Shown piece by piece: positions 2,082 to 63,444 of a stretch of DNA of 64,000 bases; position 1 is the stretch's first letter, and every line of letters begins with the position of its first letter. The notes under the pieces are model-generated. The model ran no database searches, had not been told where the DNA came from, and saw nothing but the letters and a program-made list of their open reading frames with translations. A program made the position numbers and the translations under genes. The stretch comes from Chiloscyllium plagiosum (Eukaryota): contig NC_057719.1 of assembly GCF_004010195.1 (NCBI RefSeq), forward strand, positions 27,075,623 through 27,139,622, written 5' to 3'.

Positions 2082-2989
2082 CTTATAGTCACTTCCATGA
2101 CTACCTGGTCAGGTCCACGCCCCCCCCCCCCAATAACCCACCCTCCCGTCCTGGCACCTTCCCCTGCCACCGCAGGAATTGCAAAACCTGAGCCCACACC
2201 TCCTCCCTCACCTCCATCCAAGGCCCTAAAGGAGCCTTCTACATCCATCAAAGCTTTACCTGCACATCCACCGATATCATTTATTGTATCTGTGCTCCTG
2301 ATGCGGTCTCCTCTACATTGGGGAGACTGGACGCCTCCTAGCAGAGCGCTTTAGGGAACATCTCCGGGACACCCGTACCAATCAACCACACCATCTTGTG
2401 GCCCAACATTTCAACTCTCCCTCCCACTCAGCCGAGGACATGGAGGTGCTGGGCCTCCTTCACCGCCGCTCCCTCACCACCCGACGTCTGGAGAAAGAAC
2501 GCCTCATCTTCTGCCTCGGAACACTTCAACCCCAGGGCATCAATGTGGACTTCAACAGTTTCCTCATTTCCCCTCCCCCACCTCACCCCAGCTCCAAATT
2601 TCCAGCTCAGCACTGTCCCCATGACTTGTCCTACCTGCCTATCTTCTTTTCCACCTATCCACTCCACCCTCCTCTCTGACTTATCATCTTCATCCCCACC
2701 CCCATCCATCCATTGTACTCTTTGCTACCTTCCCCCACTCTCCTCCCCGACCTATCACCTTCACCCCACCCTCATTCACCTATTGTACTCTATGCTACTT
2801 TTTTCCCATCCCCACCCTCCTCTCATTTATCTCTCCACCCTTCAGGCACTCTGACTGTATTCCTGGTGAAGGGCTTTTGCCCGTAACGTCGATTTTCCTG
2901 CTCCTTGGATGCTGTCTGAACTGCTGTGCTTTACCAGCACCACTCTAATCTAGAATCTGGTTTCCAGCATCTGCAGTCATTGTTTTTAC
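2082..2989 (+). mobile_element. 5'-truncated Penelope-like element: GIY-YIG endonuclease remnant plus 3' pLTR
   Basis: Frameshifted IIYCI...LYIGETGR...RFREH...VAQHFNS...RRLEKERLIF motifs; degenerate HHR at 2863-2892; exact 14-bp TSD ctcacttataacca at 2068-2081 and 2990-3003. Confidence 0.9.
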
Positions 2990-4725
2990 CTCACTTATAA
3001 CCAACCCAATCCCTGTTGTTGAGCAGTTACATCTTTTTTCCAAAGTTACCTGCTGCCAGAACATAAGTATCTAATCCAGTTCCAACAAACTAATCATTTT
3101 TCTCTTTGAGTTGTTAAAACAACAAAGCTAGGAATTCAAGCTTCCATTTCCTTGGTTCATATTTCCAAATTAAAAAATATGCAAATACACAGCGCTGCTT
3201 GGGGTCCCCTGAGTTACTAGGCTTCCTTGATGGACAAAGTGGTGACTAACAGGCCAACTAATGATTAATTAGTCACCCACCTCTCTTCAACAGACAGCTA
3301 AATAGCTGCCATTCTCACTTCTCGAGATATTCTTTGGTGGTGGATGGATTTTACTCTTGATACCTTATGTTACATCCACCCATCTGGCTCATTTGTAATG
3401 CTGCAAAACAGCCACCCTGCAAAACAAAAATGGTGTAGCCTTGATATTTTTGTCTAGGGATGTGACTGTGTTTGGCAAGTATAGGTCTTGTCATCTGAAC
3501 ATGAGCATTTCTCTGCCTACGTTAGTACAGCTTGATTGCTGATTGCTTTTGTTCAGCTTCCAAGCAATTCTGTATGTTTATGTTTCAAAATTGCTTGGAG
3601 AAAATGTCTAAAATCTATATTGACTTCACTTGTTTTTAGTGTGATTTTTCAGAGGTAAAGAGAGTGCATGTATGAGAGAACAATAATAGACTAATTACAT
3701 AACTGTAGATTTTGTTTATATTATAAACTTCACAATGCATGTAGCAATGGGAGAGAATCATTCCTCTTCTGAATTTGAAATATATTCCTAGAAATATTTT
3801 GAAAGTGGATATTTGTGCCAGCTAACTTTGATGTTCTAATTACTAATAATAGTTAAAGTGATAAAATAAGTCTGATGGAGATGCAGTAATATAATGGGAC
3901 AGTTCGTACAAAATTCCTGAGTTTAGGAAGGCATGTCAGGGGTGAGGTAGGGGTCGAATTGTGAACGGATTGAGGAGGGTGTGCACTAGAGAGCACAGGA
4001 TGTAATTGTAATGTCCATTATATTAAACATTATAGGAATCAGAAGAGTTAGGATGGCACCTTGTAAATATCTTGCTGCAATTTTTCAGTTTTAAAATGGT
4101 AAAGGAATTTATATAAAACAAAGGCCACACTTGAAATGATAACCAGTGTCACAGATTGGATCTTGCAACATCTGTAAAATTAGTTCAGAGAACCAAACTA
4201 AAAACTAAATTACACCAGCACCGTATATCAAAAGCTCTAATTTTATCTATCGCATCCCTATTATAATAAAATAGCAAATTACCTAAGTATTACTGCAGAT
4301 TTGCAAGGATTCAGAAATATATCCAAAGCCCTTCAAATTGATAGATGATAGTTGACACCTTTCAGTCAATATAATATCTGGGAGGGTGGGGAGTGCCCTC
4401 ATTTTTATAGCTTTAATTTCCTTCCCTTTATATTTACTTCTGTCATGCACCATTTCCCAGCTCCAAGTGGGAAACTAATCTACACCTAGCTCCAGGCCAC
4501 TGGCATTTCTGATCAGGGAACTTGCAGTGATGTCTTTGCTCATTTCCCATGTTGGCTCACTTGCCTCAGCTTCGTATTTCCCTGCCACTCTTCATCAAAA
4601 ATAAGCAATTTGTCATGTGAATATACAATTACAATCAAATCTGCTACAATGAGCTCTGATTTAAAAATAATTAAATTCTGATTATTTTTCTCTAATTTTA
4701 TTTTAACCTTTCAAATATTTTTCAG

Positions 4726-4922
4726 GGAAGGGGGACGTGTTTGGGGATATATTCTGGAAGGAGACCACACTTGCTCACGCATGTGCCAATGTGAGGGCAC
4801 TGACTTATTGTGACCTGCATATAATCCGTCGTGAAGCCTTGTTGAAAGTTCTAGAATTCTATACGCCATTTGCAAATTCTTTTTCACGAAACCTCATATT
4901 GACCTGCAATCTGAGGAAAAGA
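4726..4922 (+). CDS. KCNH5: Internal coding exon of an EAG-family voltage-gated K+ channel (Kv10.2/EAG2), C-terminal part of the cyclic-nucleotide-binding homology domain
   Basis: Translates (G)[81 protein letters not shown] and LTCNL match KCNH5 as I recall it, rather than KCNH1 (DVFWKEATLAQSC, HVI, LTYNL). Preceded by a T-rich tract and ttcag acceptor (AG 4724-4725); followed by donor gtaagt at 4923. Phase 1 start, phase 0 end. Confidence 0.93.
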
Positions 4923-5269
4923 GTAAGTTGTCTTTTTGTTATTTCATGTTATTATGGCTCACATTTAAGTTTTGTGTTTCTGATATGTTTATCTTTTGTT
5001 TAATGTCAACATTTGGTCTTGAAATTAACTTTTACTACTTACTGCTTCACTGTAGGGTAACGCTCAAAGTTTAGACGATGGTGAAGATTTGTGTGTTATA
5101 TGTTGAATGTTACTTGTTGTTGAAGGGAAATCTCAGCCTGCAGAGAAATTGTTTGGAAGACCAACTTTCCAATTTTGAGGGTCAATATCCTCACAAACTG
5201 AGGAGATACTGTCCCAGTTGACAGCTCAGGATTTTCCAGCTGATGTCCTCCAGCTTCTATCTTACCATA

Positions 5270-61127: not shown

Positions 61128-61319
61128 AGATAGTGAGGACTGCAGATGCTGGAGAGTTGGAGTCGATAAAGTGTGGGGCTGGAAAAGGTACAGCAGATCA
61201 AGCAGCATCAGAACAGCAGGAGAGATGAGGACTGGTGAAGAGTCCTGCTCGAAATGTTGACTCTTCTGCTCTTCGGTTGCTGTGTGACCTGGTGTGTTTT
61301 TTCCAGCGACACACTTTAT
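61128..61319. mobile_element. Fold-back pLTR-only insertion (family A, older)
   Basis: gataaagtgtggggctggaaaa...gcaggagag inverted relative to ctcttctgc...ttttccagcgacacactttatc; 16-bp TSD ccacta(t/c)gcactctga at 61112-61127 and 61320-61335; degenerate HHR at ~61232-61260. Confidence 0.8.
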
Positions 61320-62792
61320 CCACTACGCACTCTGATCAAGACTTGCTATTTTCTGCCTTTAACCAGTATTTCATCCAGCTGATACTGAATCTCCTATTTC
61401 ACGAGCCTCAATTTTGTTAAAGAACCTTTTATGTGGCATTTTGTCAAGTGCTTCCTCAAAATCCATATTTACAACAGGTAGTATTTCCTTTATCACCTTC
61501 TCTGTTCCTTCACCAAAAAATTCAGTTTCCACAGTTTAATTACATTGTGTATTATATTTTGGGTTCAGCTATTTGGAGGTGATACAAACCTGCAGACACT
61601 GATATTTTATGTTTTATATCAGTCACAAAGGAATCATTAATATAGCATTGGATGAAGGTATCTGAGGATAATTAAAAGTAAGCTCAGTAATCTTCCCATA
61701 GATTATACGACTACCTTGCTGGTGTCTTCAACTTGTTATTCGATTTAGACCTAATATTTAAGCTTAAAGGCTTCGGATAGAATTTTACTTTCCCTGGTAT
61801 GGCATAAATAATTGTGAAAGAACAAAAGATAATGGAGCGGAATGAGGCCCATCGAGTCTGCTCCACCATTCGATCAAGGCTGATCATAGTCAGGAGAGAA
61901 TGAGAAAATCATAATCTCAACATCAAGAAAAATGTTTGCAATTTTCTCCTCATGCCTTGATGATGATCTTGCCAGGGGTTGCAATGACCATATTTCCATG
62001 CATTTGCATTTTCATGCGTCATTAAAGCCCCCAAATTGCCTTATTTAATCGTCACTTCCAATTCCAATTCTCCTCTGTTTCCCTGAGAAACTAGACCGAC
62101 AAAATTCCCAACATATAGATCAAAGCAGGTACCCATGACTGCTGCTCAGCAAATACTTATCCTGGCCATTATCCAAATGCTTCCTCGCAACAATGTCTCT
62201 TTATCCCATGGGCACCATCTTCCTCAAGCTTTCACCGACATAAGGTGGCTTCAGCAGAACACCAGCCTCAACACACCATCATGCCTGTTCTCTGATCAAC
62301 TCAAGCACTTCTTCACCCCTTCAGTTCTTTACTTTGGCATCAGGGACACCTGGGATTTGCATGTTTTTGCCAAGCTGTTTTGTACGCAGGGACACATGCA
62401 TCTTGGGCATTAACAGGATGCATCTTTTGACATCTACTTTCCTTGCAGACACTCTCTGACCTCAGCGGTGATTTACAGCATCTGTGGGTGTCACATTGCT
62501 TTCTTAGCACATAGAGTCTTCAGTGTTCAGTTACAGGCTGTCAGTCTCTGGGCTTGCGTTGGTTCTTTTAGCACAGAGCGAGAGACAGGCGCTTGGTTAC
62601 TGTGAGGAGTACTGAACAGTGAATATATTGCTGTACTGCACTGTGCTACACCAATATTAAACCAGCAGTACTTGCCAGCAGTTGTCAATACACTGTATAT
62701 GCCTCAAACAAATGGCCGTGCACTGAAATCAAAGGAGAACATTCCTTAATAGTGGACTCCAGTCAGGAAGTGGGCACTGCCGCAGTTAGTCA

Positions 62793-63444
62793 GGCAGTAT
62801 CCAAGGAGCAGGAGAATCGACGTTTTGGGCATGAGCCCTTCTTCAGGAATGCAGACAGGACCGTATCGAGGTGAGTTCGGTGGGGCAGGAGCAGGCTGAG
62901 ACAATGGATCGGCCGGGGCAGTCAGATTTGTGGATTTTGGGCAGGAGGTAGAAACGGGTGGTGCTGGGTTGTGGGACTATGAGGTTGGAGGCGGTGGATG
63001 GGAGATCCCCTGAGGTGATGAGGTTATGGATGGTCTGGAAGATGATAGTTTGGTGGTGGGAGGTGGGGTCATGGTCAAGGGGGCAGTAGAAGGAGGTGTC
63101 CGCGAGCTGGCGTTTAGCCTCAGCGGTGTATAGGTCGGTGCGCCAAACTACTACCGCGCCTCCCTTGTCTGCCGGTTTGATAGTGAGGTTGGGATTGGAA
63201 TGGAGGGAGTGGAGGGCTGCACGTTCCAAGGGTGAGAGGTTGGAGTGGGTAAGAGGGGTGGAGAGGTTGAGGCGGTTAATGTCGCGGCGGCAGTTGGCTA
63301 TGAAGAGATCGAGGGCATTCCTGAAGAAGGGCTCATGCCCGAAATGTCGATTCTCCTGCTCCTTGGATGCTGCCTGACCTGCTGCGCTTTTCCAGCAACA
63401 CATTTTCAGCTCTGATCTCCAGCATCTGCAGTCCTCACTTTCTC
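62793..63444. mobile_element. Rearranged Penelope-like insertion: inverted pLTR + antisense RT fragment + pLTR
   Basis: Minus-strand ORF piece ALDLFIANCRRDI...IKPADKGGAVVVW...FYLLPKIHK...GRSIVS (62853-63314); 18-bp TSD cactgccgcagt(t/g)agtca at 62775-62792 and 63445-63462. Confidence 0.9.
63317..63350 (+). ncRNA. Minimal hammerhead ribozyme motif, family A, intact core
   Basis: ATTC-CTGAAGA-A-GGGC-TCAT-GCCC-GAAA-T-GTC-GA. Confidence 0.72.

Follow-up and report, generated by a model that had tools for sequence, protein, structure and literature searches.

The 64,000-nucleotide window analysed here (Chiloscyllium plagiosum, contig NC_057719.1, positions 27,075,623 to 27,139,622) lies within the host gene KCNH5, and its introns carry 18 hammerhead ribozyme motifs or remnants. 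These are very probably the mutated, hammerhead-bearing 3' ends (pseudo-long terminal repeats [pLTRs]) of at least three lineages of Penelope-like elements (PLEs), truncated at the 5' side and likely inert in KCNH5. The copies are identifiable as PLE sequence, are decayed, lie head to head between target duplications, stop at two alternative 3' ends and cluster at their 5' ends. On the sequence evidence, we think it fairly probable that such scars across the genome record the PLE RNA cycle: a capped RNA with the ribozyme first would be reverse-transcribed in uncut form, beginning at two tail sites, and give rise to several hundred thousand stubs and palindromes, and U6 chimeras at the scissile bond would show that weak vertebrate hammerheads cut in the germ line, leaving a ligatable 5'-OH.

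Hammerhead families and their Penelope-like elements

The initial annotation had assigned the motifs to three families, and all nine family A, four family B and four family C sites align to their family motifs. The eighteenth site (listed at 19965-19992, delineated here as 19965..19995, minus strand) has both boxes and weak helices but no homologue in the window, and is possibly an old remnant or a chance match. Window copies match one another in blastn searches with E values of 1e-12 to 1e-42 in family A and of 1e-4 to 1e-6 in family C. A loose scan of the window for CUGANGA..GAAA gave 16 matches, nine of them unrelated to the listed sites and seven at them, so that the boxes alone are weak evidence. 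A strict descriptor combined a 2-bp helix I, the boxes, helix II, a self-complementary helix III and a UH cleavage site. It was applied to an 864-kb genome sample, composed of the window, 100 kb on each side and 30 blocks of 20 kb that were taken at round coordinates of large contigs and are thus not fully random. The sample contained 26 strict matches (0 to 1 in 10 shuffles), which extrapolates to about 107,000 motifs genome-wide (70,000-157,000). The descriptor search proposed with the annotation thus succeeded in the sample and drew a blank in the window, where none of the 18 sites passed and Rfam detected no hammerhead up to an E value of 5, returning only chance microRNA-like matches on the palindromes. 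Exact searches of the 3.56-Gb genome recovered a 31-nt family A pattern 52,581 times, the family B pattern 230 times and that of family C 7 times; the reversed control patterns of all three gave no exact match.

The families are real hammerhead-shaped motifs, and family copies preserve the CUGANGA and GAAA boxes together with the UH cleavage site. Helix II, with its G10.1-C11.1 pair, has 4 bp in A, 5 bp in B and 2 bp in C, and the open helix I has 2 bp in A (4 in one variant), 4 bp in B and 4-5 bp in C, with letters that differ per family. The claim of at least three lineages is borne out. Three helix III palindromes had been proposed. The palindromic minimal helix is confirmed, with only two versions, ACGU shared by A and B and AAGCUU in C, the extra A and T of the proposed "AACGTT" being A14 and the cleavage nucleotide. 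Across five families, the letters that form helices I and II differ while the pairing is kept; two of the five are absent from the window. These two occur at 14 and 46 loci of the 864-kb sample (L127, L125, L137, L159 and L063); one has a GUC..GAC helix II with ACGU, and the other GGAGC..GCUCC with AGCU and a CUA site.

The attribution to minimal type I hammerheads of PLEs is upheld by the motif architecture and by remnants of reverse transcriptase (RT) or GIY-YIG endonuclease (EN), which adjoin 6 of the 18 copies in the window and, in each of the three families, further copies as well. The remaining window copies are the shortest members of one truncation series. The "ORF-less units" of the annotation are therefore 5'-truncated insertions of elements that bear open reading frames (ORFs), with junctions that differ between copies. 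For family A, tblastn matches to GIY-YIG or RT beside 2863, 10399, 48991 and 62848/63321 have E values of 1e-12 to 1e-49, their homologues are single ORFs with both domains, and the nearest named homologues of the element protein come from sharks and a ray. Long ORF-spanning copies were found at 20 loci, one without a qualifying frame; in 17 of the other 19, a family A motif follows downstream in the same orientation. Family A, listed as one family, comprises two subfamilies (A1 and A2). Its Cx4CxxC linker between RT and EN, present at 2153-2200 of the window and in the homologues, points to the Neptune type as defined by Craig 2021 (PMC8557442), an assignment based on this linker. Family B has distinct helices, upstream region and tail, and at one locus out of 25 its upstream region extends to the C-terminal end of GIY-YIG (E = 3e-6).

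Family C is old (about 75-80% identity), and its upstream region is variably truncated and runs into a GIY-YIG frame, the end of which is retained by window copy 58634-. A profile of this region matched 33 proteins, including an 850-aa RT plus GIY-YIG protein, and the C 3' region lies downstream in 15 of 20 loci with such an upstream region. The search succeeded from an alignment; a lone family C copy found no homologue. Likewise, Pfam searches with single fragments gave a weak GIY-YIG match for family A (E = 0.05) and none for single family C copies. The Zn-finger-like linker before GIY-YIG, the lack of which characterises the Penelope/Poseidon clade, is present neither in the family C copies nor in the RT plus GIY-YIG protein found with the profile (P0126), so that family C is a tentative candidate for this clade. 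The option that family C is a solo long terminal repeat or a miniature inverted-repeat transposable element (MITE) with a fixed 5' end was rejected on account of the variable truncation and the homology reaching the endonuclease. Upstream of its motif (e.g., 58680-58860, minus strand), CCAAT boxes recur and a TATAAA lies about 46 nt ahead of CUGA, by sequence a plain RNA polymerase II promoter layout, and several short copies begin about 17 nt ahead of the motif. In the elements, the hammerhead sits in the pLTR, behind the EN region and ahead of the beginning of the ORF.

None of the 18 window motifs is intact, contrary to what the annotation implied. Both boxes are kept by 7 copies and 11 lack an intact box; helix III is broken or wobbled in every copy, and a cleavable triplet with a self-pairing helix III (AUGU, with two G-U wobbles) is kept only at 48991- and 63321+. 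G12, which lies inside a CpG, is retained in 71-77% of copies and lost in about a quarter. The core decays like its neighbours (91-96% conservation at core positions, 86-93% downstream), and no purifying selection on the copies was seen in positional conservation.

Insertion layout and 5' ends

Family A and B loci were collected by a tail anchor, which avoids selection for the ribozyme. Of 191 loci, 176 copies were kept (14 were dropped for low alignment score and 1 as a duplicate), and their ends were numbered from C3. The 3' ends fall into two groups, at about +82 to +93 and at +125 (about +93 to +100 and +120 in family B), in agreement with read boundaries in RNA and contig data. The segment bounded by these ends is the PLE tail; in an Anolis element, the two ends of the tail are RT start sites (Frangieh 2024, PMC11167929).

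Half of the copies (90 of 176) form 45 head-to-head pairs, or palindromes of about 200 bp, against 6 facing-in pairs. Most pairs combine a long and a short arm (37), with 2 long plus truncated, 5 short-short and 1 long-long. Paired arms share 110 of 384 non-CpG variants (7-11% in random pairs), and 28 of the 45 are flanked by a 10-18 bp duplication, as against 8 of 300 controls. Genome-wide, 8,652 exact arm junctions with at most 25 nt between the arms were found, and N7 was the same on both arms in 49 of 50 among the junctions listed. Together, these shared variants, duplications and matching N7 indicate that each palindrome is one insertion from one template family. The head-to-head layout as such is already published (Cervera 2014, PMC4209133; Arkhipova 2013, PMC3846280; Craig 2021, PMC8557442). 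It also disposes of the idea that close pairs dimerise in cis: the two motifs of a pair occupy opposite strands and fold together as long hairpins (e.g., 60414-60636), so a cis dimer is impossible.

The 5' ends of the 176 copies pile up at the motif start, 74 of them at -10 to +2, with 14 around the cut site (+26 to +32), 40 in the interval separating these two groups, and another 36 upstream and 12 downstream of both, which implies that the insertions were made from uncut RNA. No peak of 5' ends was seen at the cleavage site, which has 2.0 ends per nt, compared with 1.7 in its surroundings and 5.7 where the motif begins. A 3' splice site as the source of the boundary was rejected, as no common upstream exon was seen among the short copies. 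In families A and B, an A at -4 stands in an initiator-like YYANWYY context, and family B has a TATA-like box about 30 nt upstream. The base preceding the start was counted by hand for A1 copies among the matches listed; fetched loci of A2, B, C and E gave too few copies for this comparison. G precedes the A at -4 in 55 of 100 copies (the first 100 of 5,010 matches), compared with 23 of 87 at the next base outward, 18 of 100 in copies that begin at -3 and 26% expected. For starts at -5, G was found in 23 of 66 after the removal of 34 rows of a variant subfamily. For L1 and SVA, an untemplated G is the accepted mark of a cap that has been copied (PMC4859970). A capped leader further requires that the tail run on into the 5' untranslated region (UTR) and ORF start, which is seen in locus L233 (E = 4e-11), and the Drosophila start also lies in the pLTR (Schostak 2008). 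Judging from these sequence features, element RNA likely starts just before the ribozyme.

Alternatively, the pile-up might mark a hot spot for RT stalling or fold-back at the ribozyme rather than an RNA start, an explanation that we consider unlikely but worth weighing. A recurring junction, GCCC-TTCCTGAAG-AAGGGC, is a fold-back and makes up about a fifth of the rows in one start listing, and Arkhipova 2013 (PMC3846280) attributes such palindromes to self-priming, with antisense RNA as a possible template. Against it, 22 of 86 solo copies also begin at -10 to +2, the excess of G distinguishes starts at -4 from the others, and families A and B have the initiator-like sequence and family B the TATA-like box.

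U6 junctions, likely cleavage and the proposed cycle

A search for the 3' end of U6 followed within 0-30 nt by an A/B tail gave four matches, all outside the window, in four A2 variants with different flanks. In 4 of 4, U6 ending in UUUUU is joined to G1.1, which directly follows the predicted cut. Rfam recognises U6 in two of these loci, and the other two hold just 26-36 nt of its 3' end. At L233:895-1550 (minus strand), a U6 stub is followed by a G1.1 start, the tail, the 5' UTR, about 390 nt of ORF, and then a second junction, likewise beginning at G1.1, with its tail, all in one insertion with a flanking duplication; a cleavage product that was circular or ligated in tandem could have given rise to it. 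The palindrome at L235:1350-1620 has the U6 junction in the inverted arm too, which implies that both arms derive from one chimeric template. RtcB joins the cyclic phosphate of U6 to a 5'-OH (Moldovan 2019, PMC6789731), and hammerhead cleavage leaves a 5'-OH, matching the RtcB substrate. These junctions suggest that the ribozyme likely cuts element RNA at least sometimes. The motif might also be a relic that has the shape of a hammerhead but never cuts, and whose sole function is that of a promoter or of a binding sequence for proteins. This would suit the insertions from uncut RNA, as well as the report that RNA-seq ends are absent at the Anolis cut site and that cleavage is unneeded in vitro (Frangieh 2024, PMC11167929), but the start at G1.1 of all four U6 junctions and of the fifth, in L233, and the covariation of the helices across five families make it improbable.

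In the cycle that we propose, a tandem element would be transcribed as capped RNA from the A located 4 nt before CUGA. Starting within the leader from either end of the tail, RT would copy through the uncut ribozyme as far as the cap and stop there, yielding stubs of 90-130 bp. Second-strand synthesis, or a second priming on the same template, would add the inverted arm, and use of the downstream pLTR would give the longer, ORF-containing copies. In vivo, the ribozyme would cut some transcripts after GUC, probably as a dimer or with the help of protein, and cutting would not be required for insertion.

Several observations weigh against this cycle and the element assignment behind it. About 17 of the 55 Gs are possibly templated by the inverted arm, which makes the G excess support rather than proof; after templated rows of all letters were removed, sorting them by eye, it stayed near 55%. 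Local-alignment ends are blurred in old copies, and 3 of the 45 pairs mix families. Helix I of family A (2 bp and a U-U mismatch) is very weak, and simple folding of this family does not favour the active fold. The link of family B to an ORF comes from a single locus, no U6 joined to a family B tail was found with the one pattern used, and no gap-free full-length element was recovered, the long open frames being assembly gaps. Finally, one polyA single-cell run contained 2,684 PLE reads on both strands without a pile of ends, and a second run contained none. End piles were absent from four RNA runs, whose library types are unsuited to showing such ends.

We consider it very unlikely that the short units are a non-autonomous family, similar to retrozymes or MITEs, that copies itself via the ribozyme. 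Such a family would explain why no ORF remnant is found at 12 of the 18 window copies, the uniform units of about 200 bp with target duplications and the few junction strings that recur, and animal retrozymes are reported as PLE derivatives (bioRxiv 10.64898/2026.07.22.740005). Nevertheless, junctions mostly differ, tandem arrays of the motif are absent from the window, a neighbour on the same strand lies within 700 bp of only 19 of the 176 copies, 5' ends mark the motif start and not the cut site, and the ribozyme would be buried in a hairpin if a palindrome were transcribed. That some copies are working ribozymes used by the host to cut KCNH5 pre-mRNA is hardly credible, for even though 63321+ retains its boxes and GUC and its AUGU complements the ACAU of 60555+, 2.8 kb apart on the sense strand, no site passes the strict descriptor, both of these face a pairing inverted arm, PLE copies across the KCNH5 span show no strand bias (19 sense, 19 antisense) and the core decays like the flanks. 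The ACAU/AUGU complementarity, which arose via opposite CpG decays, is perfect but probably due to chance, and inverted arms would pair with both.

Copies in the window and related systems

The penultimate coding exon of KCNH5 (4728-4922, plus strand) has human KCNH5 as its best match, with neighbouring exons at about -5.2 kb and +91.6 kb. The gene is on the plus strand; motif 2863 is in the intron preceding this exon and the other sites are in the last intron, so the intronic placement of all 18 sites is correct. The locus is not special for colonisation, given the genome-wide motif density and the even strand split. The window copies amount to ordinary debris of transposons, and nothing points to an effect on KCNH5 or to use by the host.

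Two family A copies lie on the plus strand with coding remnants, 3' UTR and long tail. The A2 copy at 2063..2991 contains the Cx4CxxC linker and a GIY-YIG remnant (2063-2565), and its hammerhead, 2863+, has a dead core (A6>G, A13>U); the A1 copy at 9993..10523 has a GIY-YIG remnant at 9996-10202 and hammerhead 10399+ with A15.1>U. On the opposite strand, antisense to KCNH5, the A2 copy at 48866..50521 combines an RT remnant (50021-50482), 3' UTR and long tail, is interrupted by an assembly gap (49239-50020) and carries hammerhead 48991- with intact boxes and GUC and helix III AUGU. An A1 stub at 24634..24768 (minus strand) spans -9 to +125, with G12>A and A13>U. The palindrome at 60414..60636 consists of a long minus arm (C3>U) and a short plus arm, 60555+, with intact boxes and helix III ACAU. 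It is flanked by a 10-bp duplication and is predicted to fold into a hairpin of -145 kcal/mol. A family A variant pair at 61128..61317 has a 16-bp flanking duplication, A6>G in the plus arm and a minus arm without hammerhead. The insertion at 62781..63445, within a 12-13 bp duplication, comprises a short arm (62848-, G12>A), an RT N-terminal fragment (62867-63316, minus strand) and a long inverted arm with hammerhead 63321+, in which boxes and GUC are intact and helix III is AUGU. The RT fragment between inverted arms in one target duplication implies a template jump during insertion.

Family B is represented by a solo stub at 10923..11029 (plus strand), which begins 2 nt ahead of CUGA and has intact boxes, a helix II mismatch and a broken helix III palindrome, by a copy at 24474..24600 (minus strand) with intact boxes, a broken palindrome and a lost tail, and by an old head-to-head pair at 33930..34110 in which both motifs are decayed. 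Family C includes a head-to-head pair at 7540..7896, with only the 5' half of the motif at 7609- and the changes U4>C, G8>A and A14>C at 7829+. Its 3' end at 57425..57723 (minus strand) has the CCAAT/TATA-like upstream region and G12>A. The one at 58572..59107 (minus strand) has an endonuclease C-terminal remnant at about 58880-59020, hammerhead 58634- with intact boxes and a broken palindrome, and an inverted stub at 59025-59107 (plus strand) that the annotation had missed. Also absent from its list were PLE tails without recognisable hammerhead at 8571-8625 (+), 24809-24852 (+; a family B tail next to the A1 stub), 58364-58394 (-) and 61128-61223 (-). By their ORF translations, the bulk of the intron is made of many LINE (long interspersed nuclear element) fragments of CR1/L2 type (15179-16031, 22441-23314, 26153-28448, 36545-39855, 43893-45136 and 45789-48850). 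Two inverted repeats without hammerhead, of 263 bp (98%) and 80 bp (99%), at 50740-51723 and 21036-22459, are probably young DNA transposons or MITEs.

The window motifs are real and of a known type, since PLE hammerheads and inverted ends are already published. They share with the metazoan minimal hammerheads of Cervera 2014 (PMC4209133) the core boxes, the extra base after A9, G10.1-C11.1 and a palindromic 15.2-16.2, as well as the many families per genome, the mostly single truncated copies and the opposite-strand pairs 100-700 bp apart. They differ in the shorter helices I and II of families A and C and in number, with about 107,000 strict motifs here versus 4,000 in coelacanth and 9,000 in Xenopus, obtained with different descriptors. 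The insertions resemble those of endonuclease-bearing PLEs (Craig 2021, PMC8557442; Arkhipova 2013, PMC3846280) in the head-to-head arms, the 30-40 bp tail on one arm, the target duplication, the TATA/initiator-like motifs in the pLTR and, for family A, the Cx2-5CxxC linker of Neptune type, whereas half of the copies sampled here are minimal palindromes of about 200 bp with the junction at the ribozyme's first bases. As in the Anolis Poseidon element PAc (Frangieh 2024, PMC11167929), the tail directly behind the hammerhead is bounded by two RT start sites, extension takes place on both target strands and uncut RNA is the template; in contrast to PAc, the A2 ORF begins about 45 nt after the tail and not inside the ribozyme, and the PAc data are biochemical whereas the shark evidence consists of genomic scars. 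Non-LTR retrozymes (Cervera 2020, PMC7229834; Li 2026 preprint) are likewise ORF-less type I hammerhead repeats linked to PLEs, but they form tandem units of 170-400 nt with canonical motifs, and the shark copies are dispersed or inverted stubs. In U6/L1 chimeras (Moldovan 2019, PMC6789731), U6 ending in five U is also joined to retroelement RNA and retrotransposed, whereas the 5' end of the partner here is the predicted ribozyme product. Among the papers that it covered, our literature search found nothing on shark PLE hammerheads or U6-PLE chimeras, and motifs from sharks or chimaeras may be listed in the supplements of Cervera 2014 and of the Li preprint.

Taken alone, the finding in the window is ordinary, and the genome-wide pattern matters somewhat more. 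The total of hammerhead motifs in this shark may about equal that of the far larger axolotl genome (126,247; PMC7229834). Both the cutting of PLE hammerheads in vivo and the transcript starts of PLEs are described as open in passages of Cervera 2014, Craig 2021 and Frangieh 2024 (PMC4209133, PMC8557442 and PMC11167929), and the copy numbers in the shark genome make both testable from DNA.

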